Part shown: piece by piece, positions 268 to 17,222 of the stretch
Layout: each line of letters opens with the position of its first letter
Position numbering within the stretch: position 1 is the stretch's first letter
Assembly (NCBI GenBank): GCA_026129095.1
Contig: JAHCIT010000015.1
Coordinates: forward strand, 1-34,870
Length of the DNA stretch: 34,870 nt
Direction: 5' to 3'
Source: Deltaproteobacteria bacterium
Lineage (GTDB): Bacteria; JAGRBM01; JAHCIT01
The notes under the pieces: model-generated
Databases searched by the model: none
What the model saw: only the letters and a program-made list of their open reading frames with translations
Told to the model about the DNA's origin: nothing
Program-made: the position numbers and the translations under genes

Positions 268-272
268 GTGCG

Positions 273-770: not shown

Positions 771-838
771 AAGGACGGTAGTACCCCTCAAGTATCTCCC
801 ATATCATTCTCAGCCAGGCCGAACTGTTCGCCGAGAAG

Positions 839-865: not shown

Positions 866-898
866 AAAGTATCATTGTTGAGCAAATGACGAGTCTGC

Positions 899-1168
899 AT
901 GATTCCTCACATGAAGTGTGCGGAGAGCATACGGACTTTGCGAAGGCGGCTGGGACTCTCCCAGAAGGCCGTGGCCATCGAGGCGGACTTAAGACGGCAG
1001 ACGCTGTCTGGAATTGAATCCGGCCGGATCAACCCCACGAAGGTCGAAGCCGGAAAAATCGCAAAAGCTCTCTCCGTGCACACCCGTGAGGTGCTTGCAT
1101 GTCTACGGAATCAGCGTTCCCGTATCTGGACCAGCCGGAAGCAGCTGGACCGGAAGAAGAGACGATAG
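899..1168 (+). CDS. XRE/Cro-family helix-turn-helix regulator
   Basis: IRTLRRRLGLSQKAVAIEADLRRQTLSGIESGRINPT...KIAKAL is a typical HTH_3 pattern. The start could be ATG 911. Confidence 0.85.
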   Translation: MIPHMKCAESIRTLRRRLGLSQKAVAIEADLRRQTLSGIESGRINPTKVEAGKIAKALSVHTREVLACLRNQRSRIWTSRKQLDRKKRR

Positions 1169-2460
1169 AAGCGGACGAAACGGCCGCGGCCGCTGTGAGG
1201 GAACCGGTCAGGCCGTCCAGACCAGTTCCCACCGCGTCCCCGCTCACGCCGGAGGACGAGGAGGTGCTCCGCAAGATCGCCGAATCCCTCGGCGGTAACA
1301 CTGGTGGCAAGCTGTCCCTTCGCCTCCGGCGGTTCAGAAGGGGCGAGGGTCTGAAAAGCATCCGGGCAATTGCCCTGGAACGCTGGATGTTCGAGGACGG
1401 CTTTGATCTCGAAAAGGTGATCGGCGAGCACTATGGCGACGGCAAGTATCACTGGGAAATCCGGAACAGCGGGAAATATTTCAAGTCGGGCGTGTGCGAC
1501 ATCGAGACGTACGGCGCCTTTTCAGGCGACGACGAGGAAGATACGCAAGCTCCAGCGCCCGCCGGGGAACCTGTTCCTGTCGATCTTTCCGGCCTGACGT
1601 CCCGGATCAGGAGCGAGCTTCTGGCTGAACTGCGCCCCAGGGAAACGGCCCAGCCGCAGGTGGATATCGCCGGAATGGTCCGGTCGGCTCTCGAACCCGT
1701 GATCCGGGTTCTGGAATCGAAGGCGACGGAAAAGCAGTCGGATCCGTCCGTCGCGGCTGTTCTGGGACTTCTTTCCCAGCAGAACCAGACGCTGATGACA
1801 CTGATTGGCAAGGCACTGGAGACTCCCAGGGTGAATCCGGCGCCAGCGGCGGCCTCAGACCCGATCGATTCGTTTGGGAAGCTGCTAGACATAGCCAAAC
1901 AGCTCCAGCCGTCCATTTTCCCGATGCCTTCGATGACGGGTGGCAGCGATGACGACGGCTCCGGGGACGATGACGACGAGTTTTTACCGGAATCCCCTGA
2001 ACCTGTTCCAGCCGCATCTCTCGGCCAGCAGTTCCTGGACACGATCAAGGGTTCGGTTGGCCGGGTAGCTGAACAGTTCGTGCTCACAGGTGAAAAGGCC
2101 CTGACCGGCGGCCTTGCGGGTGGTCCTGAAACAGCGGGGCTTTCCGTCGCACCGCCGGCCGCAGCCGTACACCCTGCCCCGTCGGCCCCTCAGAACCCCG
2201 CCACGGTAGTCGAGGCCCTCCTGTGCGGCGTCGAGCAGTGCGTGAAAGAAAAGCGCCCTGTGAGTGAATTCCTGACGGCGCTCACCGCCGGAACGACCCC
2301 GGAGTTCATGGCATCCGCCCGTCAGCTCACCGTCGAGCAGATCACATCGTTTGGAGCGTCCATCGGACGCCCCGACCTCACCGAGCGGTTCCGCCAGCCC
2401 GACGTCCAGAAATACCTCGGCGAGGCCCTGTCGGCCCTCAAGGGAGGTGACGGCAAATGA
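1099..2460 (+). CDS. Hypothetical virus-associated protein (small N-terminal globular domain, then Pro/acidic low-complexity and helical regions)
   Basis: 453-aa ORF with RBS GAGGTG at 1088-1093, motif IGEHYGDGKYHWEI, and a stop overlapping the next ATG (ATGA). Confidence 0.75.
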   Translation: MSTESAFPYLDQPEAAGPEEETIEADETAAAAVREPVRPSRPVPTASPLTPEDEEVLRKIAESLGGNTGGKLSLRLRRFRRGEGLKSIRAIALERWMFEDGFDLEKVIGEHYGDGKYHWEIRNSGKYFKSGVCDIETYGAFSGDDEEDTQAPAPAGEPVPVDLSGLTSRIRSELLAELRPRETAQPQVDIAGMVRSALEPVIRVLESKATEKQSDPSVAAVLGLLSQQNQTLMTLIGKALETPRVNPAPAAASDPIDSFGKLLDIAKQLQPSIFPMPSMTGGSDDDGSGDDDDEFLPESPEPVPAASLGQQFLDTIKGSVGRVAEQFVLTGEKALTGGLAGGPETAGLSVAPPAAAVHPAPSAPQNPATVVEALLCGVEQCVKEKRPVSEFLTALTAGTTPEFMASARQLTVEQITSFGASIGRPDLTERFRQPDVQKYLGEALSALKGGDGK

Positions 2461-3599
2461 ACATTCCTGAAATCCCGGTCCGGCAGATCCCCTACAACAT
2501 GTCCCGGGGCATGAAGGGGACGAAGATCACGCTCGCGCACATGGCGCTGGTCATGTGGAAGACGAGCCATTCGACGCGGCTGGCGAGGTTCGCCCGCGAC
2601 GTGATTTCGCGGGCGAAGATCAGGGAGTACGACCAGCTTGGCGAGATCACGGCGCTCTTCTCATGGGTCCGGCGGAACGTCCGGTATACCCGCGACCCCC
2701 AGAACCACGAATGGCTACAAACGCCGCTCGTCACGGTCCTGTTCGGACACGGGGACTGCGACTGCCAGGCGATGCTTCTGGGGACGCTGCTGATGAGCAT
2801 TGGCTATCCAGTGCGTATCGTCATTGTCGGAAACGCGCCGGACCAGTTCTTTCACGTCTTTCTCGCCGCCCGTTACCGGAAGGACGGACAGGACCAGTGG
2901 ATTGATCTTGATCCCACGGTGGCTGACGGACTTGGCCTCAAGCGCATCTTCGCCGCACGGCGGGAGTTCGACGTCCTGGAACAGGGTGCACTGAAGGAAA
3001 CGAGCACAGCCCCAGCCTACGGCCTCGGGAACTTTCTCGGCGACCTGTTCGCCGGGCCGCCGAAGGTGATCTCGATGAAGGTAGGCTCAAAGGAAATCCG
3101 TGTGCCTTGGAGTGTCCGGGATATTCCGTATGTCTCGGACGCCGAATGGGACAACTGGTTCCGCCAGCTCAAGGAGACCCTGACTCCGGAGGAGATCCTC
3201 CAGGTCGAGGCAGGATTCGACCGGCTGGAGCAGGCAGGGGCGCTTTCGAATAAATCGCCTGAACTCTCCGGCCTCTGGGACAAGGTGAAAAAGGGGCTCA
3301 AGAAAGTGGCCGCCCCGCTGGCCGTCGTCGCCGCTCCCATCACCGGCGGCGCGTCGATCGCGGCCCTTGCAGCCTACAAGGGCGGGAAGGCGATGGCGGG
3401 GAAGAAGGCCGCCGCGCCCGGCCGGGCTTCCAAGGCGCCGCGCACGCCGAAGGCTCCCAAAGCCAGGGCGGAGGTCAAGGCCGACACCCCGGATGCCATT
3501 CCGGCCGTGAAGGCCGAAGCCGGCCGTAACTACCTCCTCATGGGCGGGGGGCTCGCCGCTGCCGGCGGCCTTGCGTACGTCGCCACCCGGGACTCCTGA
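2457..3599 (+). CDS. Transglutaminase-like (papain-fold Cys-His-Asp) protein with a C-terminal membrane anchor
   Basis: WVRRNVRYTRDP, GDCDCQAMLL (Cys ~2757), FFHVF (His ~2853) and WIDLDPT (Asp ~2910); hydrophobic C-terminus YLLMGGGLAAAGGLAYVATR. Confidence 0.85.
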   Translation: MNIPEIPVRQIPYNMSRGMKGTKITLAHMALVMWKTSHSTRLARFARDVISRAKIREYDQLGEITALFSWVRRNVRYTRDPQNHEWLQTPLVTVLFGHGDCDCQAMLLGTLLMSIGYPVRIVIVGNAPDQFFHVFLAARYRKDGQDQWIDLDPTVADGLGLKRIFAARREFDVLEQGALKETSTAPAYGLGNFLGDLFAGPPKVISMKVGSKEIRVPWSVRDIPYVSDAEWDNWFRQLKETLTPEEILQVEAGFDRLEQAGALSNKSPELSGLWDKVKKGLKKVAAPLAVVAAPITGGASIAALAAYKGGKAMAGKKAAAPGRASKAPRTPKAPKARAEVKADTPDAIPAVKAEAGRNYLLMGGGLAAAGGLAYVATRDS

Positions 3600-3616
3600 A
3601 AGCGAAAACGTTCACG

Positions 3617-4567
3617 ATGAAGAATTCCCGCCCCGTCACGCTGTCAGTCCGGATCGGCCCCAGGTCGCTGGTGTTTCCATGGTCATCCGGCGCGCTTTCG
3701 CAAAAGTCTGACGGCGAGATCGATGACTGGCTCATGCGCCAGAATCTCTCGGCAGGGGAGCTGGGCACGCTGGCAGAGCTGTTCGGAAGGCTTTCGTGTC
3801 CGAACGAACTCACGCCGCTTGGCGATCCGAACCTGGGGCGCGTGAGCAAGGTGGCCCAACGGCGGCTCCCGCCGCCGGTGGCAAGGCAATTAAGACAGAT
3901 CCAGGCGAGCCGGAAGAAACTGATCGCCGAGCGGAAAGCGCTCGCAAAAGCCCGGTCAGCGGCGCAGGCCGCACAATCGGCCGCAGTGACTGCGCCGCCA
4001 CACGTTTCCCCGTCGCCCGTTTCACTGCCGCCCGCTTCGCCGACTCCGGTTGTTACGGCTGCGCCAGCAGCTGAGCCTCCCAAAAGCCTGGAACCCGTCG
4101 TGGAGCCGCTGATTCCGCCGGTGGAAAGACAGGCGACGATAGCACCGGCACAGTCGCCGGTTACCCAGACGGCTTTCGTTCCGGACTATCTGCCGCCGCC
4201 AGCCGTGCCGCAGGTCGTCGTGCAGGTTCCGCAGATGGTCCAGGCGTCCCCGGCGGCCACTGCGCCGGAGCCGCCTGGACAGGCAGTTTTTGCGCCGCCG
4301 GGCGCCGCCGCTCACGCCGTCCCTTCACCGGCCACGCCGCCAGTGCCCATTGTGCCGGTTCCGGCGGTTTATTCCACTCCAGCATATCGACCGCCGGTTT
4401 ATCCCTATCCGTTAACAGAAGATGACGGCGCGTGGGACGAGGAGGACTATTCCGGCGACTACGAGGAGTTTGGAAACACGGAGCCGCAAAAGACGGTCTT
4501 TGGGGAACTTCTCGCCGGAGCCGGTTTGCTCGGAATGCTCGCCTGGCTGATTGCGAGGAAAACATGA
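3617..4567 (+). CDS. Pro/Ala-rich protein with a C-terminal transmembrane anchor (putative virion membrane protein)
   Basis: 316 aa; long Pro-rich stalk, acidic patch, C-terminal LLAGAGLLGMLAWLIARKT; ATGA overlap with the next gene. Confidence 0.7.
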   Translation: MKNSRPVTLSVRIGPRSLVFPWSSGALSQKSDGEIDDWLMRQNLSAGELGTLAELFGRLSCPNELTPLGDPNLGRVSKVAQRRLPPPVARQLRQIQASRKKLIAERKALAKARSAAQAAQSAAVTAPPHVSPSPVSLPPASPTPVVTAAPAAEPPKSLEPVVEPLIPPVERQATIAPAQSPVTQTAFVPDYLPPPAVPQVVVQVPQMVQASPAATAPEPPGQAVFAPPGAAAHAVPSPATPPVPIVPVPAVYSTPAYRPPVYPYPLTEDDGAWDEEDYSGDYEEFGNTEPQKTVFGELLAGAGLLGMLAWLIARKT

Positions 4568-5217
4568 TCCGGCTCATCACATCGGCAGTGGGACGTCTGG
4601 CCGACACGAAGGCCAGGATCGTGCTGTTGCTCCGGAACCAGTCGGTTCTGGCCCGGCAGACGCAGCGGATCGGGGAGTTTGCCAGACGTCATCCGGAAAT
4701 CCGCGTGGACTGGCTCGCCTACGGCACCGGGATCAGGGAGCTTGAGAGCAGGATCGACAGGATCATTGCCGACGAGACGGCCCTGAGGACTGACTTGAAA
4801 ACCTGGATCGACCGCAACTTCGGCTCCGAACCGGCCGTGAAGATCGATCTGGAGCCGCTCGGCATCCGGAACCTCTCTGGCGAGCTTCCCCTGGAGCCGC
4901 TTCTCAATCTCGGCGACGGCACCGTCACCTCGCTCGCCGGGCGGATATTCGATCTCCAGAGCCGGGTTCGAACAGCACTGGCTCTCATCGACAGCCTGCA
5001 GCACTCGCACGCGGAGACGCTCCGCCGGGTGCGGGAAGTCGTTGCTGGGAAGCCTGAAATCCTCAAGGACCTGGACGGCGTCATCGCCGCCAACGAAGCC
5101 GACCGGATCACCGGCATGGGGACCGATCCGGGCATTTATATCCTGTCGGGCCTTGCCGCGTGGTTTTCGTGGAAACTCTACCGCTGGGCCTCGAAGCCGA
5201 AAGAGACAAGTGCATGA
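4564..5217 (+). CDS. Helical/coiled-coil protein with a C-terminal membrane anchor
   Basis: Start reassigned to ATG 4564 (GAGGAA upstream, ATGA overlap); heptad-like helices; C-terminal IYILSGLAAWFSWKLYRW followed by basic residues. Confidence 0.7.
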   Translation: MIRLITSAVGRLADTKARIVLLLRNQSVLARQTQRIGEFARRHPEIRVDWLAYGTGIRELESRIDRIIADETALRTDLKTWIDRNFGSEPAVKIDLEPLGIRNLSGELPLEPLLNLGDGTVTSLAGRIFDLQSRVRTALALIDSLQHSHAETLRRVREVVAGKPEILKDLDGVIAANEADRITGMGTDPGIYILSGLAAWFSWKLYRWASKPKETSA

Positions 5218-5807
5218 AGCCGTATCCGGTCATGGAAGAGAAGGCGGAAGTGGTGCGGATGAATCCGGCAGATGCTCTCGCGCCGTCTGCTGCCGCTGAC
5301 AAAACGCCGGTCTCGCCGCCCCGGAAGGCCGCGAAAACGCGCGTGGGTGCGAACGTCCAGCTCTCGCTCATCGGGCTTCTCAAGGGGCTCGTCTACGTGG
5401 ACGGATACCACCGGCAGATATCCTACACCCCGAAGCGGGCGGTCCTCGTCTGTCAGGCTCCGAACAGGAAACTTGTCTTTGCCTACGGCGCAAGGCCGTC
5501 GAAACTTCCGCACGCGGCCATCTCGTCCGTTGTCCTCTCGAACTTCCAGGAGTTCAACGGCTTCCCGGTCCGCCGGATTCTGGATTCGGTCACGACCCGG
5601 AAATATGGCCAGACGAAATACCTCGGCCAGCTCACCGATATCGTCTACTGGTCGGACAAGTGCATTGACCCCGCAAGCTGCCGTTCGGCGGCCGACTATC
5701 ACCACAGGTTTGAGCCTGAATTTCCCAGGCTTTTCGTCAATCCCGGCGAGCTGCTCCTTCTCGAAGGAGGTTCGTACACCATCACCCGCCGGGGCATCGC
5801 CGGCTGA
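5214..5807 (+). CDS. Hypothetical virus protein with an internally duplicated beta-rich domain
   Basis: Start reassigned to ATG 5214 (ATGA overlap); RMNP near the N-terminus; C-terminal LGQLTDIVYWSDK...YHHRF...LLLEGGSYTITRRGIAG. Confidence 0.7.
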   Translation: MKPYPVMEEKAEVVRMNPADALAPSAAADKTPVSPPRKAAKTRVGANVQLSLIGLLKGLVYVDGYHRQISYTPKRAVLVCQAPNRKLVFAYGARPSKLPHAAISSVVLSNFQEFNGFPVRRILDSVTTRKYGQTKYLGQLTDIVYWSDKCIDPASCRSAADYHHRFEPEFPRLFVNPGELLLLEGGSYTITRRGIAG

Positions 5808-5822
5808 AGCGTAGACGCTTCA
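5805..5822 (+). other. Short hairpin over the stop codon
   Basis: TGAAGCGT-AG-ACGCTTCA, a perfect 8-bp inverted repeat with no U-tract. Confidence 0.35.
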
Positions 5823-5884
5823 CCCAGTTGGCTGGCGAAGCCCGGAGAACCAACCACTAATCACCCCTGAAAAGGAAACCCGCC

Positions 5885-7015
5885 ATGCCCAGCAAGAAGT
5901 CCCGCAAGAACCCCGCCCCGCTCGTTGGGAGCGTCATTGCCAATCCGGCCCTCTACACCAAGCGCCTCAAGGGAGGCGAGAAGGTCTATTTCAACGTTGG
6001 GCAGAACGCGAAGGTCGAGCGGAGCCAGACCCGGCCGCAGTATATCATCGTGACAGCACCACAGGACGCTCCCGGGCGGCCGAAAATGGCGCGCCGCCGC
6101 CCCCCGGCACCGCCCCCTCCGGCCCCGGTGCAGCCGGCTCCTGTGACGCCCCGCCCCGCGCAGCCTCGTCCCATGGCCCCACGCCCCGCACCTGGAGCAC
6201 GGCCCAGGGCAAAGCAATCGAAATCGCACAAAAAGCACCGTCGCCCCAAGCCGCCCTCGCCTGCAACAAGCTACCGTCCGCCGTTCCCGCCCTTTACCCG
6301 GCCTTCGGAACAGACGCGCCAGAACCCGCTCTTTGGCGGCGGCGATAGCGGAGCTGGCGAGATGGCGAAAACCGCCGGCGAGGCCTTGATGGTATTCGTG
6401 GCCCTGGGGCTCGGCATCCCGCTCGTGAAGCGGGTCCTTTTGAACGTCCTCAGGAAACCCGAGGCGGGGCCGGATGGAAAGCCGACGGTCGTTTCGCACG
6501 CCATCCAGGCGGGTCTTGCGGCCATCGCCTTCGGCGCGGCCGGGAAGGCGATAAAGGACTCCACGCTGAAGACTCTCGTCCAGGGAGCAGCCGTGGCGAC
6601 GGCGGTGGCCCCGGCCGTCAATCAGCTCATCGAAAAGATAAAACCCGGTGCGGGGCTGAGGCTCCTTGGGGATCCGGCCGATTCTGCTCCCATCAGCCTC
6701 AATTTCAATGTCGATCCGCTGCCGCTCACCGAAGGCCTTTCGGCTGACCTCCAGGACCTGGATACGAATCCCGCCATCGACCGGATGCTGACGGAAAAGG
6801 CCGCCGATCTGGGCGCTCCGCAGGTGGCCCCGGCCGGTGAGCCGCTGTTCCGCGGACTTGGTTCTCCGCAGGTCGCCCCCGCCAGTGAACCCCTTTTTCG
6901 CGGTCTAGGAGAAGCCGAAGAAAGGCTTCTTGACCCGGCCGACACCGATCCCGCTGGTCCCACATCCATTGCAGCCAGTGAGCCGCTCCATCTCGGGGCG
7001 CTCTACATCAACTGA
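5885..7015 (+). CDS. Basic Pro/Arg-rich membrane protein immediately upstream of the capsid gene (putative core/membrane protein)
   Basis: RBS AAGGA; basic N-terminal half with RKNP and RQNP; about three Gly/Ala-rich hydrophobic helices; C-terminal repeats ending in LG. Confidence 0.75.
   Translation: MPSKKSRKNPAPLVGSVIANPALYTKRLKGGEKVYFNVGQNAKVERSQTRPQYIIVTAPQDAPGRPKMARRRPPAPPPPAPVQPAPVTPRPAQPRPMAPRPAPGARPRAKQSKSHKKHRRPKPPSPATSYRPPFPPFTRPSEQTRQNPLFGGGDSGAGEMAKTAGEALMVFVALGLGIPLVKRVLLNVLRKPEAGPDGKPTVVSHAIQAGLAAIAFGAAGKAIKDSTLKTLVQGAAVATAVAPAVNQLIEKIKPGAGLRLLGDPADSAPISLNFNVDPLPLTEGLSADLQDLDTNPAIDRMLTEKAADLGAPQVAPAGEPLFRGLGSPQVAPASEPLFRGLGEAEERLLDPADTDPAGPTSIAASEPLHLGALYIN
6809..6910 (+). repeat. 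48-nt (16-aa) intragenic tandem repeat, two full copies plus a partial
   Basis: LGAPQVAPAGEPLFRG / LGSPQVAPASEPLFRG / LG; units start at 6809, 6857 and 6905 and differ mostly at synonymous sites. Confidence 0.9.
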
Positions 7016-7043
7016 ACCACCCCAACCAAAGGAAACCACAGTC

Positions 7044-7877
7044 ATGAACGACACCGACAATCTCTACGGACAGCTCCACGGCCTCTACGGCGACGAAGGC
7101 ATGAGGGAGATCGAGCCTGAACTGGGTGCGATGCCCCCGGCCGAGCAGAAGAAGGTCGCCCGGCACCTGGTGCGCCAGGGGCGCCTCATGCGGCTAGCGG
7201 CCCGGAAAAGCGTCGCCGACGAGCAGAAGACAAGGCGCATCGGCGGCTTCGACGAGGAAAACGTCATTCGCGACTGGGCGCGCCGCAAGGGAATCCCCTT
7301 CGAGCGGCTCAAGATCGAGAACGTCCGGTGGTTCCACCGCCGGTATGTGGACATCGGGACTCCGGCGGGCCTCCAGACGTCGCGCTACGCCTTCTTCAGC
7401 GAGGTGCCCAAGCCCGGCGCCCAGGACACGAACTTCGACATGTGGGGCGAGTGGCCGCAGACGACGCTCGTTCTGCTCCGGGGGATCATGAGCCAGGTGC
7501 TCATCCACTCGCTCGGCGCGGCGCCGGTCGACCGGTCGGCCAGCGGCTACCTCTCGATGGTGCAGCGGTTTCTGCACCACGCGACGGTCTCCTACAAGGT
7601 GGACCAGTCGACGACGGTGACGCAGCTCCTGAAAAACCTGCCCCCGGCGGGCGGAGCCAACGTTGTGAATATCCGCGACGAGTCGAATGGCTATCCGGAG
7701 GCGAACAATCTCCGGACATTCAAGCGCCCCGTCGTGATCGAGGGCGGCATCCAGTACCTGATCGAGATGAACGTCGATACCGGCTCGTTCCATAACGGCG
7801 GCACGCCGGTCTATACCGACTGCGTCCTCGACACGGTCCTTGAGCTCGATGCCACCTGGATCCGCCAGGCCGGGTAA
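7044..7877 (+). CDS. Putative major capsid protein (single jelly-roll type)
   Basis: Start reassigned to ATG 7044 (AAGGAAACC upstream). Pattern FF...DTN...G...LRGI...NGYPEANN...PVVIEGG...LELDATWIR of alternating beta strands recalls capsid proteins of uncultured tailless viruses; central position in the operon. Confidence 0.6.
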   Translation: MNDTDNLYGQLHGLYGDEGMREIEPELGAMPPAEQKKVARHLVRQGRLMRLAARKSVADEQKTRRIGGFDEENVIRDWARRKGIPFERLKIENVRWFHRRYVDIGTPAGLQTSRYAFFSEVPKPGAQDTNFDMWGEWPQTTLVLLRGIMSQVLIHSLGAAPVDRSASGYLSMVQRFLHHATVSYKVDQSTTVTQLLKNLPPAGGANVVNIRDESNGYPEANNLRTFKRPVVIEGGIQYLIEMNVDTGSFHNGGTPVYTDCVLDTVLELDATWIRQAG

Positions 7878-7898
7878 CTGGCATTACAGCGCACCTTC

Positions 7899-7944
7899 TG
7901 GCGAACTGAGAAAAAACCCTCAGGGCTTTACCTCACGTTCGCCA
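7899..7944 (+). other. Intergenic stem-loop 1 after the capsid gene
   Basis: TGGCGAAC-TGAG (7899-7910) pairs with CTCA-C-GTTCGCCA (7932-7944); inner CCC-TCA-GGG. Confidence 0.7.
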
Positions 7945-7960
7945 CTCCCTCCCTCCTCCT

Positions 7961-8028
7961 GCCGGACCGGGCAGCGGACGCTCCGCTAGCCGCCCAAGAT
8001 GGGTGCAGCCTTCGCTGCCCGGTCCGGC
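7961..8028 (+). other. Intergenic stem-loop 2 (perfect 16-bp inverted repeat)
   Basis: GCCGGACCGGGCAGCG (7961-7976) is the exact reverse complement of CGCTGCCCGGTCCGGC (8013-8028); inner hairpin GCCCA-AGA-TGGGT. Confidence 0.85.
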
Positions 8029-8052
8029 CCCTCCTTACCAAGGAAACCGGTC

Positions 8053-8532
8053 ATGGACTTCACGCAGCAGTATCCAAAGTGGTTTGTGGACGAGTTCGAG
8101 AGGATCCGTGCGAAGCACGGCGCCCGGAAGATCATCCAGCCCTCGTTCCATCCGGCGGCTTTCACGGACCTTACCGGAACCTTCACGGCGGCGAGCGAGC
8201 ACAGCACCGTCGTGACGATCCCGCAGAAGGAGATTTTCGTGCTCTTCGGCTTCCGCTACGCCACGACGGACATGGAAAGAATGCTCCAGTACCCGTTCCG
8301 GATGAAGGTGAGCGATCCGAGCCGCCAGGAGGCCTTGCTGCCCAGCTACGTCTTCGCGCCGTCGGTCTGCTCGACGGCGGCGTTTTTCTCCCCGCTCATG
8401 GTCCCGGTGGAGTTACCTGGCAGTTCGATCCTCAAGATCGACATCAAGATGCCGGAAGGGCTTCCAGGCGGAAACGAATACATCCCGGAGATCGTCCTCT
8501 GCGGCGTCTCGCTGCTCGAAGGCCTGCTCTGA
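8053..8532 (+). CDS. Putative second/minor capsid protein (single jelly-roll-like)
   Basis: Start reassigned to ATG 8053 (AAGGAAACC upstream); 159 aa with about eight beta-like segments: VVTIP..FVLFGFRY..FRMKVSD..PLMVPVELPGSSILKIDI..EIVLCGV. Confidence 0.55.
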   Translation: MDFTQQYPKWFVDEFERIRAKHGARKIIQPSFHPAAFTDLTGTFTAASEHSTVVTIPQKEIFVLFGFRYATTDMERMLQYPFRMKVSDPSRQEALLPSYVFAPSVCSTAAFFSPLMVPVELPGSSILKIDIKMPEGLPGGNEYIPEIVLCGVSLLEGLL

Positions 8533-8547
8533 AAGGCATTTTCCCTG

Positions 8548-9348
8548 GTGAAAGTCACCTATCAGACGCTCGACTTCAGCAATCCCTCAGGCTCGCCAAA
8601 GCGCCTGACGCGGAAGCTCTATTTCCCGCGTGACAGCGTCATCTGCCGTCTCGTGACCGAGCCGGCCGGGCCGTATTCCGGGGGTGATTTCTTTCAGTTT
8701 AAGGAAGTGACGATCGGCGGGAAACCGGCGCTGACGCAACCTGCGGCTGGCTTAAGGATGCTGATGCCCGGCGCCGGCAATACGCCCATACACCTGCCGG
8801 TCAAGGGCGGCTATTCGCTCGAAATCACGTCGGACGTTCCGGGGCTGACGAAGGTGCAGATATATCTTGCCTGGCGGGACGCCGGTCTTGAAGAGGACTT
8901 CAGCCACGAGACGTTCTTCTACGTCGGCGAGTTCGTCGATATCTATGCCATCGAAGGGATGACGCGGTTTGTCTTCCAGCGGGACTACCGGTGGGACGGT
9001 CTCAGCTATCTGGTCGGCGGCGAGGACGGCACGAAGGCCTGGAAATCGGCCCGGTATCCCCATGCGATGGAACCCGGCATAAGGTCCGGAGGGGTATTTG
9101 CCAGCGCGGGCCATTTCCCCTCCGTCGCGCTCCCCATGCGGCTTTCCTGCCCTCCCGAGGAGTGGCGCACACCCTTCATGCAGGAAGCAAGTTTCGCCTC
9201 GCACCTGTCGTTCGGAAAGTTTCCCGTCCCGATCTTCACAAAGGCCGGGGTGGCGATCGATGGCAGGTTCGGTTTGCTCAACTTTTCCCTTTTCGACTTC
9301 CCCCACACCCTCGTCACCGTCGGGGAACATTTGACGGGAAGAATTTGA
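8548..9348 (+). CDS. Putative minor structural protein with two tandem jelly-roll-like units
   Basis: GTG start; the second half (RFVFQRDYRWDGLSY..PMRLSC..FPVPIFTKAGVAIDGRF..LVTVGEHL) parallels the 8053 protein. Confidence 0.5.
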   Translation: MKVTYQTLDFSNPSGSPKRLTRKLYFPRDSVICRLVTEPAGPYSGGDFFQFKEVTIGGKPALTQPAAGLRMLMPGAGNTPIHLPVKGGYSLEITSDVPGLTKVQIYLAWRDAGLEEDFSHETFFYVGEFVDIYAIEGMTRFVFQRDYRWDGLSYLVGGEDGTKAWKSARYPHAMEPGIRSGGVFASAGHFPSVALPMRLSCPPEEWRTPFMQEASFASHLSFGKFPVPIFTKAGVAIDGRFGLLNFSLFDFPHTLVTVGEHLTGRI

Positions 9349-9352
9349 GATC

Positions 9353-10321
9353 ATGAAAAGCCCACTGGTGATCTTTGGCGATGTGACCGGCGGAAGGTTC
9401 AAACATATTCCGTTCGGGACCCTCTGGAAGCTGCTCCGCGCCATCGATACGGAAATACTTACCGGCTACGCCTATGCCGACCTTCAGGACCATAGCCGCA
9501 CGCAGCTTCTGGACTTCGCCGTCCCGGTCGATTGCCACCTTTTCTGCCACGAGATCGAGCTGGATATCGCCTGCCGCGCCGGCCGGGCCGTGCGGATCGA
9601 CCTTTTCGCCGGCGAGGAGCAACTGCTGCCGGCCCGCTCGGCCTTTATTGGCGGCACTGGCATCCTGGGGATGCACGCGCTCGGGCCGGAAAAACTCTCG
9701 CTCAAGGTTCGCCGGATGCTGGCGCCGGGGACCAGGCTGAGGATTTTCGGGACCCCTTTCCCGCCCTATCGCCTGAGGTTCGGTGACACTCCACTGACGC
9801 CGCAGGGGAGTTTGCCCCAGTACGACGTCTATAATGCCGACGATCCGGTACTTGGGTCGCTATCGACGCCGTTTGAGATCCTCGACTGGTCGCCCGGCAC
9901 GCCCATACCCGCCGGCTGGCCTTTACCGCCGCTGGAGCAGCGGGTCTATTTCAAGGGCAAGGGCCGGATCACGTTTTTTGCGAACCTCACCCTGTCGGCA
10001 CCGGACCCTGGCGTCATCACGGCTGTCCAGGCCTACAGTCCGGACTTCCCCTACGAAAGCGTCATTAACGAAACCGTCATTGGCACGAACGTCAATCCCT
10101 GGACGAAGTCCGAACGAATGCTGACGGTGACGCCCCGGATGGAGCTTGCCGAGTATGCCTTCCGCGTTCATGGCGGCACGGGCTCCAGCCTCAACAATCT
10201 CAAAGTCTACTGCATTTTCCAGGAAGCGCCCCTGAACTGGGAAAACAGCGTCGTCATCAATGCCCGCATCCGCGGCACCCGCATCCCCCGCGACATCTTC
10301 AGGACCTTCGGCGAGCTATGA
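9353..10321 (+). CDS. Putative minor structural protein: jelly-roll-like unit with an inserted beta domain
   Basis: FAVPVDCHLFCHEI..VRIDLF..LLP..VRRMLAPGTRLRI, then an insert, then the final strand INARIRGTRIP. Confidence 0.5.
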   Translation: MKSPLVIFGDVTGGRFKHIPFGTLWKLLRAIDTEILTGYAYADLQDHSRTQLLDFAVPVDCHLFCHEIELDIACRAGRAVRIDLFAGEEQLLPARSAFIGGTGILGMHALGPEKLSLKVRRMLAPGTRLRIFGTPFPPYRLRFGDTPLTPQGSLPQYDVYNADDPVLGSLSTPFEILDWSPGTPIPAGWPLPPLEQRVYFKGKGRITFFANLTLSAPDPGVITAVQAYSPDFPYESVINETVIGTNVNPWTKSERMLTVTPRMELAEYAFRVHGGTGSSLNNLKVYCIFQEAPLNWENSVVINARIRGTRIPRDIFRTFGEL

Positions 10322-10965
10322 ACAACCAGTATGACCACCTGATACGCCAGTTCGCCACGCGGCCGGACTTCCCGCCCCATTTTGTCAAGGGAATGATCCA
10401 CGTGGAAAGCGCCTTCAGGGCGGACGCAAGGGGCCCGGGCGGCGAACTGGGTCTGATGCAGTTTCTCGCATCCACGGCGAAAACGCTCGGCGTGGATCAC
10501 GCGTCGCTCGTGAATCCCGAGGCGGCCATCAGGGCCGGAACCCGCTACATAGCCCAGATCATCGACAAGTACGTGACGCCGAACCTTAAGGTCCCCATTC
10601 ATCCGCAGCTCAGGATCAGGTTCGTGCAGTTTGCCTACAACGCCGGCCCTTTGTTCACGGTGAGGCTCCTGAAGCGCTTCGGGGCAGATGCCGCCACCCT
10701 GTCCAGTCCCGGCTCCTTCAATCGCATGGTTGACACGCTGAAGGGCGATCCGGATGTACTGCGGCTCCAGAAGCTCACCAGGGAGGCCGATTTTCTGGCC
10801 GCCCGGAAGAAGGTCGTGGAGCGGTATCAGTACTGGGCCGGGCAGTATGCGAAAGACTTCGGCACAAACCCCGGCGCGAACCCACCGGCAGCCGTCCAGG
10901 CCTCCATGCCCCTCATCCCGCTCGCCATCGTGGGAGCCGCCTATCTCATCTGGAAACGGAAATGA
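10318..10965 (+). CDS. Lytic transglycosylase (SLT domain) with a C-terminal membrane anchor
   Basis: IHVESAF (catalytic Glu), GLMQF, NPEAAIRAGTRYI and AYNAG motifs; C-terminal LIPLAIVGAAYLIWKRK. Confidence 0.9.
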   Translation: MNNQYDHLIRQFATRPDFPPHFVKGMIHVESAFRADARGPGGELGLMQFLASTAKTLGVDHASLVNPEAAIRAGTRYIAQIIDKYVTPNLKVPIHPQLRIRFVQFAYNAGPLFTVRLLKRFGADAATLSSPGSFNRMVDTLKGDPDVLRLQKLTREADFLAARKKVVERYQYWAGQYAKDFGTNPGANPPAAVQASMPLIPLAIVGAAYLIWKRK

Positions 10966-11267
10966 CCCCCATGACGGACCTGCTCGAAATCCTGAACTCC
11001 AAGGTGGCCGTCGGCCTCTTTTCTGGCCTCTTTTCGATCCTGGGCGTGCTGGTCGGAAGCTACGTGCGCAGCTTCACCGACGAGCGCATCGAGCAGAAAC
11101 TGAAGCCGCTGCTCGAACGTTTGTGGCAGATCGAATCGAAGATCGCCGAAATACTCCGCGACGTGGTCGAAATACGAAAAGGCCAGGAAACAATGGACGA
11201 TCACCGCCGCCGGATCGAACGCCTCGAGAACCGCTCCATGTCGTCAAACGGCAATCATCGCCCATAG
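10962..11267 (+). CDS. Small membrane protein with a coiled coil (holin-like or lysis accessory)
   Basis: One N-terminal TM helix, then heptads ending HRRRIERLE; located between two muralytic genes. Confidence 0.55.
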   Translation: MTPMTDLLEILNSKVAVGLFSGLFSILGVLVGSYVRSFTDERIEQKLKPLLERLWQIESKIAEILRDVVEIRKGQETMDDHRRRIERLENRSMSSNGNHRP

Positions 11268-11276
11268 GAGGTAACC

Positions 11277-11696
11277 ATGCCGGTCGTCATCAGTTTCAAG
11301 ACCGCCGCCCTGAATCCGGACCTCGCAAAAATCGACAGCCGCATCAAAGCGCTCATCTTCGAGGCGGCGGACTGGCTCGCCCGCCTGAATCTTTCCCTTA
11401 CCATCACCTGTTTGCTCAGGGACCGGGCGACGCAGGAGGCCATTTTTCAGAAAGCCCGAAGCATCGGCGCCAGGGAACCCATTCGCTCGCCGCACGAGGA
11501 CGGCCGGGCGGTGGATATTTCCATTAAAGGGTTTTCCGAAGAGATTATCACCGGGCTTGTGGATCACCTGAATGAAACTTTCCCCTACGAGGGAAACCGT
11601 CTTTATAAAACGGCCATCCGCCATGACGTGGGACAAGGCGACCACATCCATATCCAGGTGGCCCCGCCTGCGGGCCGCTGGGGAGTCGCTGCGTGA
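11277..11696 (+). CDS. Peptidase M15-type Zn metallopeptidase (endolysin-like)
   Basis: ITCLLR..., SPHEDGRAVDI (H-x6-D) and DHIHIQ (HxH) motifs; RBS AGGAGG. Confidence 0.85.
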   Translation: MPVVISFKTAALNPDLAKIDSRIKALIFEAADWLARLNLSLTITCLLRDRATQEAIFQKARSIGAREPIRSPHEDGRAVDISIKGFSEEIITGLVDHLNETFPYEGNRLYKTAIRHDVGQGDHIHIQVAPPAGRWGVAA

Positions 11697-12475
11697 GTCT
11701 GGGCGGTTTTTACATGCTGCCCGGCGAGTCCGGGCCATCTGGACCGTCTGGACGTATGCCGGAAAGTCTTGAGCTTTCCGGCCTTACCGACTGGCTCACT
11801 TCGCCGGTCGAGCAGACGAAAAGGCTTATATCCGAGCGGGCCGCCCAGAAGGCCAGGGAAGAGATACAGAAGAAGGAAAACGAGAAGGCCGAGTGGGAAC
11901 GGACCGGGCAGCCGTGGTCGAAGAAGGCAGACACTCTTCTCACGGCCGCCAAATGGGGCGTCATTACCATCCCCCTCGGTATCGTCGCCGTGTCTTTAAT
12001 GCCGCTTTTCAGGGGTGCTGGTACAGCACTTGGCGGAACCGGCGCGGCCCTCTCTGGCATCGGAGCCGCCACGAAGGAAAGTGCGGCTTCGGTGCAGGCG
12101 GCAAGAGAGTCCTTAACCCGCCGGAACCCGGCCAGTGTCCGGTACAGTGAAAAGTGGACGCTCCTCCGGCGGCTCGGAGACCGCTACTGGCAGCTCGCCG
12201 GCTCGCACCCGGGCAAAAGCCGGCAGCGGGAGTTTTTCCTTGGTGTGTCGGAAGGGATCCACGAGGCCTCCGAACTCGCCCGGACAGAAAATGCGCGCCG
12301 TTATCTCCGCCGCCGGGCATCGCCGAAGCTGAAAAGCCTTGCGAGGGGCCGTCTCGTGGCGGCCCGCCAGGGCAACAGCCTCCTCCGGAGCCGTCTGGAC
12401 GGACGCCACCGCGGCCTTCTCGTCGCCACGGCATTTCTTGCCGACCCTCAAGCGTCGTTCCCGGTCTTTGGCTGA
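11693..12475 (+). CDS. Membrane protein with a basic C-terminal domain after an RRNP motif
   Basis: GTG start overlapping the previous TGA; ELSGL motif, TM helix WGVITIPLGIVAVSLMPLF, Gly/Ala stretch, RRNP, Arg-rich tail. Confidence 0.65.
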   Translation: MSLGGFYMLPGESGPSGPSGRMPESLELSGLTDWLTSPVEQTKRLISERAAQKAREEIQKKENEKAEWERTGQPWSKKADTLLTAAKWGVITIPLGIVAVSLMPLFRGAGTALGGTGAALSGIGAATKESAASVQAARESLTRRNPASVRYSEKWTLLRRLGDRYWQLAGSHPGKSRQREFFLGVSEGIHEASELARTENARRYLRRRASPKLKSLARGRLVAARQGNSLLRSRLDGRHRGLLVATAFLADPQASFPVFG

Positions 12476-12526
12476 TGCCACGGACCGTCATCCCCTCAAC
12501 CACCACCAAAAGGAGTGTTTGCAAAC

Positions 12527-12760: not shown

Positions 12761-12788
12761 TCAGAAAAGACGCGCTGCGGAGTAACCG

Positions 12789-13196
12789 ATGCTCTGGGAA
12801 CTTAACAGACTGACAAACGTGCGGCTCGGGCCTTCGAAGGTCTGGGTCTCGCCGGTTCATCGCATAAATTCCCTGATGATCCAGAGCTTCGGAACGGGAG
12901 CGGATTTCGATCAGTACAACTCCGGGCAGGTGGCCCTGGAAGGGACGAACTGGTCCTGGGCCGAGGCCGGTTTTGCCAGCGAGGCCGCCTGGAAAGCTTC
13001 ACAAGCTCCGCAGCGCGTCTGGCTTCCAATCGATATACCGTCCGGTACCCCGTGGGTATTTGATGGAACGCCGGCAAAGCTTGCCTGCTATCTCGACCGT
13101 CTGCCGAGGTTCATACGCCTGAGGGAAACCGGCACGCTCACCGCAGGTAATTTCATCGACCTCGCCATCCACGCGAGGCTCTTTGGCGACCGGTGA
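12789..13196 (+). CDS. Small beta-rich structural protein (penton/vertex-like, tentative)
   Basis: 135 aa, beta-rich, C-terminal PRFIRLRETG...IDLAIHAR; immediately precedes the spike-like genes. Confidence 0.4.
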   Translation: MLWELNRLTNVRLGPSKVWVSPVHRINSLMIQSFGTGADFDQYNSGQVALEGTNWSWAEAGFASEAAWKASQAPQRVWLPIDIPSGTPWVFDGTPAKLACYLDRLPRFIRLRETGTLTAGNFIDLAIHARLFGDR

Positions 13197-13206
13197 GACC
13201 GGCGAG

Positions 13207-13695
13207 ATGGGATTCCCCGGCAATGGCGCTGAAAACACCGGCGGGCGAATCCTCGTTCACCGGGAAACGCAAATAAGCTGGTCCACGGGGACCGGCACAA
13301 ACACAGGGCCCGACGGCTCGATCGACTGGGTGAAAACAAGTGGCCTCTACCGCCTCGTCTTCCACTGCGCCGTCATGCAGGCCACAGGCACCCACAACGC
13401 CATCACGATCCGGGTCCAGACCGGCCAGCCGCTCGTGGCCACCAATCGCCTCACAGGAGTCCGGCGGACGGTCGCCGCCGCAGGTGCGGCGTTCATGACC
13501 TGGACCAGGGGAGCGGCAGTTGTTCAGGGCGACTTTGCGGCCTTCGAGAGCGGAGATATCCAGATGTACGCGGACGAATTTCTCCTGACCCAGCGGCTTG
13601 GCGGCGGAACGGCCTTTGCTTTCCGCGCCGTCTCGACCGGCGGTTCGGGCTCCGGAATCGGAAACAGTTCTGGCTGGTGGCTTTTGCCGGTATAA
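13207..13695 (+). CDS. Putative spike/vertex protein A
   Basis: Start reassigned to ATG 13207; begins MGFPG; Gly/Thr-rich beta protein. Confidence 0.5.
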   Translation: MGFPGNGAENTGGRILVHRETQISWSTGTGTNTGPDGSIDWVKTSGLYRLVFHCAVMQATGTHNAITIRVQTGQPLVATNRLTGVRRTVAAAGAAFMTWTRGAAVVQGDFAAFESGDIQMYADEFLLTQRLGGGTAFAFRAVSTGGSGSGIGNSSGWWLLPV

Positions 13696-13700
13696 GAAAC

Positions 13701-14717
13701 ATGGGATTCCCTGGAACATCCGAAAATGCGGACGGCGGTGCGCCGGAACTGGACCTGGAAGAGGCCGGCGAGGCCGTGACGGTCGACTGGACGCTTTCCC
13801 ATAAACAGGCCGTCACGGCCGGTGTCGATACGGTCTTTTCGTTCATTGCGCCACCAGCTGCCGGATCCGATCTCACGCTCCGCATCCGGCGCGGCGCCAC
13901 TTCTCCCACGGCGCTCTATTTCCCCTCAAGCTGCCGGTGGCCGGGAGGTTTTTCACCCGTTTTCGACTTTTCCGGTCCGGACAATATCCAGCTCGTCCGC
14001 ATCTACTACGACGGAGTGAGCTATCACTGCCGGACGGTTGCGGGTTTAAAAAAACTCCCGCCCGGGGTGAACCTCGCCGGCTATAGCGAGACGCGGATAT
14101 CGTTTGGCTATCCGTCGCTTTCATTGAATGCCGGAACCGGCCCAAGCCGCATCGCCTTTCTCGTCTTCAACGAGGTTTATAACACCTTCCTCGGCCCTGT
14201 GGGCAGCATCAGTTTCGCCGGGCAGCCCATGACAAGGCTCGTTCCGCCGTCGGACGACTACCGGGGGCTCCAGGTCTTTTTTCAGGTAAACCCTCCATCA
14301 GGCCTCGGTTTCTTCACCTTCACCGGTTTCAGTACGGCTGGATACCTCCTCCAGGCGTTTGTCCTGACCGGCTTAAACCAGGCGAATCCCGTGGAAACCG
14401 ACGACAGCCGGGTGGTGGCTGACGACTATGCCAATCCTTTCCACATCGGGACCATCCCGCCCTCATCCGGTTCTGACCGGTTTTTCCTGAACATCGCTTC
14501 CAGTTTCAACGGCGCCTACGGCGGTCCCTACAGTCCCGTCGATGGCCAGACGGTGAAAATCTTCGAGCAGGCTTTCCCGGGCCCCGAGCATTACCGCCGG
14601 CAGATTTGCGGCCTTCTGGGCCCCATCAATCCTCCCGGCTACCGCGAGACCGTCTGGCAGGGCTTAAGCGGCTTCGGAACCCGCATCGAGCGCCGGATTC
14701 TCCTGAACCCGGCCTGA
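13701..14717 (+). CDS. Putative spike/receptor-binding protein B
   Basis: Start reassigned to ATG 13701 (MGFPG). Contains VDW..Q..F...P..G..LTLRI...FP...RWPGG..P...IYYDG, a module seen in phage fibre/spike proteins, followed by a beta-sandwich-like head. Confidence 0.6.
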   Translation: MGFPGTSENADGGAPELDLEEAGEAVTVDWTLSHKQAVTAGVDTVFSFIAPPAAGSDLTLRIRRGATSPTALYFPSSCRWPGGFSPVFDFSGPDNIQLVRIYYDGVSYHCRTVAGLKKLPPGVNLAGYSETRISFGYPSLSLNAGTGPSRIAFLVFNEVYNTFLGPVGSISFAGQPMTRLVPPSDDYRGLQVFFQVNPPSGLGFFTFTGFSTAGYLLQAFVLTGLNQANPVETDDSRVVADDYANPFHIGTIPPSSGSDRFFLNIASSFNGAYGGPYSPVDGQTVKIFEQAFPGPEHYRRQICGLLGPINPPGYRETVWQGLSGFGTRIERRILLNPA

Positions 14718-14738: not shown

Positions 14739-15947
14739 ATGTCCGAACCGTTACTGGAATGCCGCATCGACCGAAACCAGTGGATCTGGAGCGGAAAGCT
14801 TCTGGGCAAAAAGGCCGCCGACAGGCTTGCCGGGCGGATGTTCGAGACCTGGCAAAGATTGAATGCCATGTGGCCAGGGATGCCTCAGAACGTGGAACGG
14901 ATGATCGTAATGGAGGAGGAAAAACTCCGGATTGTGCTGACGAAGCCGCCAAGGCGGTTCTCTTGGGGAGACGATCAAATCGGCATCGTGAACGGCTTCG
15001 ACGTGACGGTGGTGACCGAAGACGGGATATTCACCCCGCAGCAGCGGGCGGCCTATCTGCGGCTCTACGGTCAATGGCACCTTCGCCGGGCAATCGATGT
15101 GGCGCACACCGGCGGCCACTCGATGGCATTGATCCCAAGCCATGAGCCTTATGAAGCGAGTGACGAGGACCTGGAACTGGCGAAGCAGGCCGTGGGCTCT
15201 CTCTTTGCGGCAAAAGACCCGGACATGGCACTGGAAGTCTGCCCTCCCAGCGGAGAATACGAGGAGCAGTTCCCATCGAGGCGTCCGGATCCAGGGCTAA
15301 TCGAGCGCGACATTCTGGCGGCGCGGGCACTCTTGCCGTCAGTCGAAAAGGTGCTGTCCGGCAAGGAATCGCTTCGCCTCATGGAGCGAATCGAGGTGCG
15401 TCTCGCCTTCAGCACCCATCATGCCGCCCGGATCATCGAAGTCGCCCGTTCCATCGCCGCTCTCGACAGGGAAACGATCATCAGCCCGGCGCACCTCGCT
15501 GAAGCAGTACAGTACGCCCCGCCGGAGTGGCGCGGCCGGAAGAACCCCGGCGATGACGACGGATTCGACGGCTTCTGGGGCAAACCGGTCAGCGTCTATA
15601 CGCGGGCGCAGGCAATCGCCGACGGGACGCTCGTGGATCTGTCGGCAATCGTTCCCGACGTCTGCCTCCAGCACTACAAATACCCCATAGCCTGCACGGC
15701 CGCCGTCTGGGCTATCATCGACGCCGCCGTCCGCAGCAAGCACCACATGAACAGCGTTGCCGGAATCGTCCACGACATCCTCTGGATGAGCCGCGTCTAC
15801 AGGCGCCAGCTTTCGCCCGATACCGTCATCACGCGCGTGGCCATTACCGGCGCGGGCAGGAAGAAAGTCTACGGCTTCAAGTTAGTTGCCGGACCGGGCG
15901 ACGACGCCGGGCCCGTCATCACGATCATGCTGCCCGGGGAGGACTAG
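14739..15947 (+). CDS. Fusion: degenerate ComM/YifB (Mg-chelatase-like) homolog plus a DUF6573-like domain
   Basis: YGQWHLRRAIDVAHTGGHSMALI and RIIEVARSIAALD..ISPAHLAEAVQY match ComM motifs, but the Walker A is missing. After RKNP come SVYTRAQAIADGTLVD..AVW..DILWM..GPGDD..PVITIMLPGED. Confidence 0.7.
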   Translation: MSEPLLECRIDRNQWIWSGKLLGKKAADRLAGRMFETWQRLNAMWPGMPQNVERMIVMEEEKLRIVLTKPPRRFSWGDDQIGIVNGFDVTVVTEDGIFTPQQRAAYLRLYGQWHLRRAIDVAHTGGHSMALIPSHEPYEASDEDLELAKQAVGSLFAAKDPDMALEVCPPSGEYEEQFPSRRPDPGLIERDILAARALLPSVEKVLSGKESLRLMERIEVRLAFSTHHAARIIEVARSIAALDRETIISPAHLAEAVQYAPPEWRGRKNPGDDDGFDGFWGKPVSVYTRAQAIADGTLVDLSAIVPDVCLQHYKYPIACTAAVWAIIDAAVRSKHHMNSVAGIVHDILWMSRVYRRQLSPDTVITRVAITGAGRKKVYGFKLVAGPGDDAGPVITIMLPGED

Positions 15948-15949
15948 TT

Positions 15950-17203: not shown

Positions 17204-17222
17204 AACGTAAAAGGAGTTCGCC

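Follow-up and report, generated by a model that had tools for sequence, protein, structure and literature searches.

A loose hydrophobic-glycine bias in membrane-associated proteins of a putative membrane-containing provirus encoding a transglutaminase-fold protein

Contig JAHCIT010000015.1 of the Deltaproteobacteria bacterium assembly GCA_026129095.1 (GTDB lineage Bacteria; JAGRBM01; JAHCIT01) opens with a block of about 20 tightly spaced genes (899-17684, plus strand) which, judging from protein folds and gene context, is probably an integrated, tailless, membrane-containing provirus. Examination of this block within the window, i.e. the whole stretch of 34,870 nucleotides analysed here, revealed that glycines preceded at one or two positions by Phe, Leu, Met or Tyr are over-represented in six of its proteins (g2457, g3617, g4564, g5885, g7044 and g11693). 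The bias is real but loose and modest, and it is confined to modular, helix-rich, membrane-associated proteins. A preliminary description of this DNA had read these glycines as one recurrent motif at module junctions, where a membrane-anchored transglutaminase-fold enzyme encoded by g2457 might cut virion proteins. Its observation is partly confirmed and its interpretation partly supported, namely in its setting. The conserved sites may rather act as structural punctuation of modular membrane proteins, a reading that we favour tentatively, and the element itself is more novel than the motif.

The motif, [FLMY]-x(0-1)-G, comprises [FLMY]G and [FLMY]xG and spans about a third of all Gly contexts. 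The six named proteins contain 78 instances against 50.3 expected from shuffling whole proteins (ratio 1.55, z 4.5) and 59.5 expected from local shuffling over 30 amino acids (aa) (p 0.004), so that it is indeed commoner than composition predicts. The excess remains outside the hydrophobic segments (60 against 37.4, ratio 1.61, local p 0.001), and Gly-rich membrane segments were therefore rejected as its source. A DNA-level cause was rejected as well, since the codons of the LSG sites are the usual preferred ones and 899-17700 has no over-represented 6-mer or 8-mer. The bias recurs in the orthologues of the six proteins at a second locus, L011, which had played no part in the choice of the motif (72 against 49.2, ratio 1.46, local p 0.004); the four orthologues at a third locus, L012, gave 47 against 37.7, a ratio of 1.25 that is not significant. 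A proxy for the host proteome (2646 open reading frames (ORFs) of at least 250 aa) showed observed-to-expected ratios of 0.98 and 1.03, and none of 5000 random sets of six such ORFs reached 1.57. The bias is driven by Leu at positions -1 and -2 of Gly (25 and 26 against 14.9 expected). Among more specific patterns, [FLMY]G[DE] occurs 15 times against 6.7, and in 16 proteins of the structural block [MIL]xGG occurs 13 times against 4.7 and [MIL]xGxG 10 times against 4.8.

All 20 motif strings cited in the preliminary description are present in the translations of the genes to which they had been assigned. Its statement that nearly every structural protein carries the motif does not hold, however: the 15 unnamed proteins of the block have 118 instances against 110.5 expected (ratio 1.07), the jelly-roll block (7999-10321) has 27 against 30.4 (0.89) and the right arm (14739-17684) has 20 against 24.1 (0.83).

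Conservation was followed site by site in strict alignment columns, with homologues below 70% identity. Of the 20 cited sites, ten persist in the majority of these homologues and ten do not. As a class, motif glycines are retained barely better than other glycines (243 of 454 alignment cells, 53.5%, against 333 of 703, 47.4%), and the hydrophobic residues of the motif are retained in 356 of 500 cells against 1484 of 2047 for the remaining hydrophobic residues. The average nevertheless covers six clear conservation islands in variable surroundings: YGLGNFLGD, LNLGDG, LLGDP, ELSGLTDW, LHGLYGD and LHLG.

In g2457, YGLG and PELSG are each kept in five of six homologues and NFLG is not (three of six). 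The linker island YGLGNFLGD (aa 188-196, 3018..3044) has a site identity of 0.67 against 0.23 in its flanks, at the 90th percentile; across the eight sequences of the family Y188, L190, L194 and L270 are invariant, and the Gly after L194 is replaced in three. The second site, ELSGLWD (aa 269-275, 3261..3281; PELSGLWD, 268-275), precedes a Lys-rich hydrophobic tail and stands weakly above its flanks (0.43 against 0.37). At PLGDPNLG of g3617 (aa 67-74, 3815-3838), DPNLG is kept in the single homologue that could be compared, where PLG and EFG are not; NLG is found in both L018 and L011, and PLG in L018 only. In g4564 the stretch PLGIRNLSG...LNLGDG (aa 98-119, 4855-4920) includes two sites, NLSG and LNLG, that are kept in all four homologues (0.79 against 0.42, 98th percentile, for LNLGDG, which is itself present in all four), and GMG is kept in one of the four.

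The protein g5885 keeps RLLG (five of five) and LHLG (four of five), and loses DLG (none of five) and the FRGLG pair (none or one of five). LLGDP (aa 260-264, 6662-6676) reads LLG[DE] in all five homologues, with an identity of 0.72 against 0.38 (96th percentile). The FRGLG pair belongs to two EPLFRGLG repeats (aa 319-342, 6839-6910), which local alignment assigned to a [EQ]P[LI][FLV](x)G repeat present in one to three copies in all seven g5885-family tails; the L011 version is QPILRG, three times, and copy number varies between lineages. At the C-terminus, LHLGALYIN (6986-7012) carries LHLG at 0.50 against 0.21 and a terminal Asn that is invariant in the seven tails aligned (five diverged lineages plus L020, a close copy). 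Near the N-terminus of g7044, LYGQLHGLYGD (aa 7-17, 7062-7094) holds QLHG, kept in three of four homologues, and LYG(15), kept in four of four; LYG(8) and PELG are kept in none. LHGLYGD has an identity of 0.63 against 0.26, and L11 and G16 are invariant in seven of seven sequences. In g11693, LELSG is kept in both homologues and MSLG in neither. ELSGLTDW (aa 27-34, 11771-11794) follows a variable N-terminus (0.57 against 0.23), G30, D33 and W34 being invariant in all 12 sequences of the family and L28 present in at least 90%.

The form [LY]-G-[DEA] is shared by five of the six islands, frequently with a Pro behind it (LLGDP, PLGDP). The conserved sites converge on L/Y-G-D/E or on L-x-G-hydrophobic, in indel-rich linkers or near termini, and share no single strict consensus. 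LSGL is found in four proteins against 0.2 expected, and the unrelated 4-mer LAAR is equally widespread. Pairs of proteins share 22 5-mers against 14-15 (p about 0.03), and two 4-mers occur in at least four proteins against 0.5. A common recognition motif [DE]LSGL[TW][DS] in g1099, g2457 and g11693 was considered and rejected: the unbiased k-mer test is near chance, the g1099 copy is missing in L011 and L019, and, across the orthologues from four elements, changes of the variable residue in g2457 are not matched by changes in g11693. We thus make no claim to a shared recognition sequence, k-mer sharing being near chance and the LSGL of g1099 missing in distant orthologues.

The enzyme invoked in the preliminary description is encoded by g2457 (2457..3599), whose product matches PF01841 (Transglut_core) over aa 59-153 (2631-2915) with 34.2 bits for a cut-off of 23; all eight family members match it, the best with an E-value of 2.1e-08. 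The predicted Cys-His-Asp triad stands: Cys101 (2757-2759, within GDCDC), His133 (2853-2855) and Asp152 (2910-2912) are invariant in all eight sequences and in canonical order, and the Cys lines up with GDC/GNC in transglutaminase-like PDB chains. The protein is probably catalytically competent. Two C-terminal hydrophobic segments (aa 288-306 and 359-377) suggest membrane anchoring. Like the SLT enzyme of the same block, g2457 combines a catalytic domain at its N-terminus with one or more putative anchors at its C-terminus, and so is probably carried on the viral membrane. The transglutaminase fold covers transglutaminases such as the membrane-bound TgpA, site-specific proteases (C93, and McjB acting on McjA) and the viral cell-wall isopeptidases PeiW and PeiP (sections of PMC10318531), and sequence alone cannot choose among these three kinds of role for g2457.

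We tentatively favour the possibility that the motif sites are structural hinges or docking points that punctuate modular membrane proteins. A hydrophobic residue followed by Gly would end one helix or module and an acidic residue would start the next, some sites might also be short docking peptides linking membrane proteins to the shell, and the g2457 enzyme would be carried on the viral membrane. On this view the sites do not form a set of cleavage sites. This is suggested by the restriction of the bias to helix-rich modular proteins, by the position of the sites between indel-rich stretches, by the Gly-Asp-Pro islands and by the helix ends of the g7044 model. In this model, helices 3-28, 32-65 and 71-82 terminate at or just before G28, G67-G68 and G83, which places PELG at a helix end; LYG and LHGLYG lie inside a predicted helix. 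The variable number of tail repeats in g5885 (one to three) speaks for docking rather than processing. PLFRG, as found in these repeats, is also present after the membrane segment of g11693.

Several observations weigh against this account. The best-conserved site of g7044, LHGLYGD, is the one that lies inside a predicted helix rather than at its end, and the helix-end argument draws on one moderate model (g7044) out of six proteins. A generic capping signal would be expected proteome-wide, yet the proteome ratio is about 1.0. The p values for Leu at -1 and -2 (0.007 and 0.0035) would fail correction for about 160 tests, and no residue after Gly is significantly enriched. Finally, in g7044, g9353 and g11693 a conserved site is found no more than 30 residues from the N-terminus, an arrangement that would also suit propeptide removal.

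In the alternative of the preliminary description, g2457 would act as a cysteine protease in virion maturation, cleaving proteins behind the Gly of the conserved hydrophobic-Gly sites. Such an enzyme would trim short N-terminal peptides from g7044, g9353 and g11693, separate the modules of membrane proteins and free itself from its anchor. Besides the invariant triad, the enrichment of the motif and the conservation of half of the cited sites, this idea can call upon the [LY]-G-[DEA] shared by five islands, the location of conserved sites after variable N-termini in g7044 and g11693, the two conserved sites in the enzyme's own linkers, the apparent translational coupling of g2457 to the acidic g1099 (from the coordinates) and the [MIL]xGG excess; site-specific proteases with a transglutaminase fold do exist, namely C93 and McjB (PMC10318531, in part). 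The sequence-based refutation proposed in the preliminary description did not overturn it, the motif being commoner than composition predicts and half of the sites being conserved. We nevertheless consider it quite unlikely. The family matches PF01841 only: none of its eight members matched PF06035 (C93), PF13471 (McjB) or PF12386 (C71) at E <= 10, with the proviso that HMMER filters may mask very weak matches, and a Pfam scan of 20 block proteins found no viral cysteine protease family, clan CE included. The number of enriched instances, roughly 60, far exceeds what could be expected of cleavage sites, some of them lie inside folded or conserved domains (e.g. IEGGIQ in g7044 and LEGGSY in g5214), the P1' and P2 residues differ between the two site classes, and the Gly of NFLG is replaced in three of eight sequences while its Leu is invariant. 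A complex prediction for aa 1-200 of g2457 with g7044 (score 0.13, mark 0.32) was uninformative either way. The words "protease" and "transglutaminase" are absent from the main text of a survey of double-jelly-roll (DJR) viruses (PMC5894146), and "protease", "proteoly" and "cleav" from that of a review of membrane-containing phages (PMC6356626). We found no precedent for such cleavage among prokaryotic membrane-containing phages, and the open-access literature searched had no report of a transglutaminase-like protein from phages of the membrane-containing or jelly-roll kind. The full proposal, a bacterial DJR-type virus maturing its virion proteins after Gly by means of a membrane-anchored transglutaminase-fold protease, appears distinctly improbable. 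If it were true, the enzyme would be a functional analogue, with a different fold, of adenain-type proteases and, among prokaryotic membrane-containing phages, the first protease to act in maturation; cleavage at these sites would mean that prokaryotic jelly-roll viruses have a maturation step linked until now to their eukaryotic relatives, and it would give the transglutaminase fold a protease role in viruses. Adenain cleaves at (M/I/L)XGG-X and (M/I/L)XGX-G. As with this clan CE enzyme of eukaryotic DJR viruses, a cysteine enzyme gene here lies beside candidate jelly-roll capsid genes, and at the candidate sites Gly is preceded by a hydrophobic residue at a distance of two or three positions; in contrast, g2457 has a transglutaminase core with Cys-His-Asp order, the islands read L/Y-G-D/E and not GG, and cleavage is putative. 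C93 (PF06035, BTLCP) and McjB (PF13471) share the papain-like transglutaminase fold and the Cys-His-Asp triad with g2457 and perform limited proteolysis (PMC10318531, in part), but they are non-viral and have no sequence match in the g2457 family.

Alternatively, g2457 could be a cell-wall peptidase or isopeptidase that breaches peptidoglycan from the viral membrane at entry or exit, the Gly motifs being unrelated to it. It is built like the lytic transglycosylase g10318, the enzyme domain being at the N-terminus and a hydrophobic anchor at the C-terminus, with no sign of a signal peptide, and both viral transglutaminase-like isopeptidases (PeiW and PeiP, C71) and many peptidoglycan amidases of the papain-like superfamily are described in parts of PMC10318531. 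We regard this as unlikely, given that g2457 has no C71 (PF12386), NlpC/P60, CHAP or PHROG match and no cell-wall-binding domain and lies 7 kb away from the SLT cluster. PeiW and PeiP of methanogen viruses are likewise virus-encoded (here putatively so) transglutaminase-like cysteine peptidases (PMC10318531, in part); they differ in that they are fused to wall-binding repeats, whereas g2457 is putatively tail-anchored, and in that they are pseudomurein endoisopeptidases, whereas the present host has genes for ordinary murein (SLT paralogues in the genome). A true transglutaminase, cross-linking Gln and Lys side chains and thereby fastening membrane proteins to the shell or lending the particle stability, seems very unlikely: PF01841 includes real ones such as TgpA (PMC10318531, in part) and the tail of g2457 and its homologues is Lys-rich, but most prokaryotic members of the family are uncharacterised and the Gly pattern would be left unexplained. 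It is just as doubtful that the pattern is functionless, in that a degenerate motif, once spotted by eye in six proteins, would look recurrent through chance and through the selection of those proteins. The breadth of the motif, the ten cited sites that are not conserved, the near-chance sharing of 4-mers and 5-mers (LAAR being as widespread as LSGL) and the failure of position-specific enrichments under multiple-test correction agree with it; it is contradicted by the 5000 random ORF sets, by local shuffles (p 0.001-0.004), by the recurrence of the bias in L011 and by the six conservation islands.

At the level of folds, the locus looks viral, as put forward in the preliminary description: its jelly-roll proteins have membrane proteins with predicted tail anchors, and a lytic transglycosylase with a predicted membrane anchor, on their flanks. 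Our provirus reading draws on the jelly-roll proteins (g8548 and g7044), on clear hydrophobic anchors in five proteins (g4564 being sub-threshold) and on the SLT protein with its C-terminal anchor. The block's most conserved protein, g7044 (7044..7877), has a helical N-terminus and a single jelly-roll. Its AlphaFold2 model (predicted local distance difference test (pLDDT) 71.5) comprises three helices in the first 82 aa and an eight-stranded jelly-roll at aa 85-277. This domain matches the coat protein of satellite panicum mosaic virus (Z 8.1, 130 aa), the SPV1 capsid protein (Z 7.5, 148 aa), FLiP (Z 6.9) and PRD1 P3 (Z 6.4), and lies equally near nucleoplasmin-type proteins (Z 8.3) and cupins (Z 6-7); Foldseek against BFVD returned CRESS-virus capsids.

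The protein g8548 (8548..9348; 266 aa) gave a poor AlphaFold2 model (pLDDT 45.5), the readable part of which is an N-terminal jelly-roll of 115 aa (Z <= 7.2). Its ESM Atlas model (predicted TM-score (pTM) 0.55) is DJR-like, close to GH172 (TM-score 0.66 over 242 residues) and PNGase F (0.60), and also near a Cu2_monoox_C cluster (0.52) and two viral clusters (0.57 and 0.64). A feature search of the Atlas placed it nearest to 30 unannotated, mostly viral clusters (score 0.94). The cellular DJR families are DUF2961/GH172, PNGase F and PHM (PMC8812541, in part), and since the Atlas matches are such families we consider g8548 a small DJR capsid candidate. It is plausible that g8548 is a small DJR capsid protein and g7044 its single jelly-roll partner; g7044, named as the capsid protein in the preliminary description, is thus probably not the major capsid protein, g8548 being the better candidate. 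The products of g7999 (7999..8532; 177 aa, with orthologues in six loci) and g9353 (9353..10321; 322 aa, beta-rich) are perhaps single jelly-roll or beta-rich proteins. The termini of g9353 are conserved (FGD at aa 8-10 and a C-terminal FGEL, with F8, F319, G320 and E321 invariant), and it had no informative Atlas match. PDB profile searches with g7999, g8548, g9353 and g2457 gave nothing significant.

Two points count against a viral origin. The structure-search tool cautions that Z below 8 may reflect a common arrangement, and all fold matches fall in the range that it rates as common. The assembled part of the element, whose left arm is truncated by contig ends in every copy, contains no integrase, replication initiator or Walker-A ATPase; among the genes of 1-17800 the Walker A motif was found only as one weak AGSHPGKS in g11693. 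The packaging ATPase is considered a later addition in DJR virus evolution (PMC8812541, in part). Conjugation or secretion machinery, which SLT, Pro-rich transmembrane proteins and RadC might have indicated, was dropped in view of the missing ATPase and the jelly-roll folds. The element shares with PM2 (Corticoviridae), FLiP (Finnlakeviridae) and PRD1 (Tectiviridae) the many small membrane proteins, a membrane-anchored transglycosylase and a block of about 17 kb. The similarity would be one of fold, through the Atlas model of g8548, and is not one of sequence. Unlike these phages, it lacks a packaging ATPase, a replication gene and an integrase in its assembled part, and carries RadC, a clamp-like protein, DUF6573 and a transglutaminase-fold gene.

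The block lies at the start of its contig in a genome of 3.67 Mb, and the source phylum consists of six reference genomes, five of which have g7044 homologues. Gene order from the helix-turn-helix (HTH) gene to RadC is identical in G005:C37 (L011, about 40% identity) and G002:C67 (L012), and partial copies are found on six more contigs and on one JGI metagenome contig (L020). One of these six belongs to the genome of the window itself and carries a second, diverged copy (G000:C15, L016, 1-6376) with genes 4564 to 10962 at 41-75% protein identity; other genomes of the phylum likewise have two lineages apiece. A further contig carries homologues of g11277 (45% identity) and g12789 (30%) separated by about 20 kb (G000:C22, about 172.7-193.4 kb), which may belong to another mobile element. 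The element is confined to this phylum, and its relatives are scarce: g7044, searched by word index against 5.8 billion proteins, matched only the two copies of this genome, a profile search of 1.84 billion representatives gave three 50%-identity clusters and one marginal hit, and IMG/VR scans found no relatives of the element. It is thus an orphan virus-like locus in a phylum of only six reference genomes, which unites a DJR-like protein, a transglutaminase-fold enzyme and a RadC/clamp-like arm, and is of interest even without cleavage.

The flanks on both sides differ between copies, which indicates that the block moves. To the right of RadC lie a surface protein (window), a methyltransferase (L011) or UppS and IS66 (L012). 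The DNA to the left of the HTH gene varies as well and is of defence type each time; three copies end at a contig break at or just left of the HTH gene, and L018 and L019 extend further left into unrelated defence genes. In the window a Cap3-like JAB isopeptidase (273-770) follows a 5'-cut ORF, L018 (G005:C52) has a type I restriction HsdR, and L019 (G002:C113) has AbiEi/AbiEii, an OLD-family ATPase, a UvrD helicase and a caspase-domain protein. The element either bears variable defence cargo or resides in defence islands. The DNA after 17684 is taken as host. It has glycosyltransferase-like genes and encodes a surface protein of 3230 aa (17883-27575, a stretch of lower G+C, 0.49-0.56), in which CBM96, FG-GAP, PKD, Kelch and Ig-like domains are combined.

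Start-on-stop overlaps, as read from the coordinates, link six gene pairs of the block. Searches against Pfam, PHROG and NCBIfam name few of its genes (HTH, Transglut_core, SLT and the right arm); the remaining proteins have no match in these databases, and 16 of 20 have none in PHROGs. The first gene of the conserved block encodes an XRE-type HTH_3 regulator (899..1168; Pfam E 5.8e-12) and also heads L011, L018 and L019. It overlaps the longest frame of g1099 (1099..2460; acidic, 453 aa, no match in the three databases) by 70 nucleotides in a different frame, and the true start of g1099 may be further downstream. The stop of g1099 overlaps the start of g2457, and its orthologues are in L018 (71%) and in L011 and L019 (about 25%). 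The Pro-rich g3617 (3617..4567; no Pfam or PHROG match) is tail-anchored, with a C-terminal hydrophobic segment at aa 294-312. It is followed by the helical g4564 (4564..5217), with a conserved hydrophobic C-terminal stretch below the hydropathy threshold used, by g5214 (5214..5807; 197 aa, conserved, with orthologues in four loci and no Pfam or PHROG match) and by g5885 (5885..7015), in which a basic Pro-rich N-terminus precedes central hydrophobic segments.

Beyond the jelly-roll genes, g10318 (10318..10965) encodes the SLT lytic transglycosylase (PF01464, E 2.3e-16), with a C-terminal hydrophobic segment at aa 193-211 and PHROG matches to endolysin and internal virion protein families. The small g10962 (10962..11267) has an N-terminal hydrophobic segment, its Pfam and PHROG hits all being sub-threshold. 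The conserved g11277 (11277..11696; 139 aa) has orthologues in three loci and no match in the three databases; its H..D and HxH pattern presumably recalls LAS-type zinc peptidases. The membrane protein g11693 (11693..12475) has its hydrophobic segment at aa 88-106. The next two genes, g12789 and g13677, occupy 12789..14717, and g13677 is variable, with no orthologue in L011 or L012.

The right arm (14739..17684), identified with Pfam and NCBIfam and conserved in L011 and L012, encodes a Mg_chelatase_C and DUF6573 protein, a beta-clamp-like protein (g15950) and a RadC-like JAB protein, a trio that is unusual beside capsid-like genes. In the window DUF6573 forms the C-terminus of the g14739 protein. 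In one lineage (L012, 8566-9393) the N-terminal module of g11693, comprising the motif, a coiled coil and the membrane segment, is fused to a DUF6573 domain.

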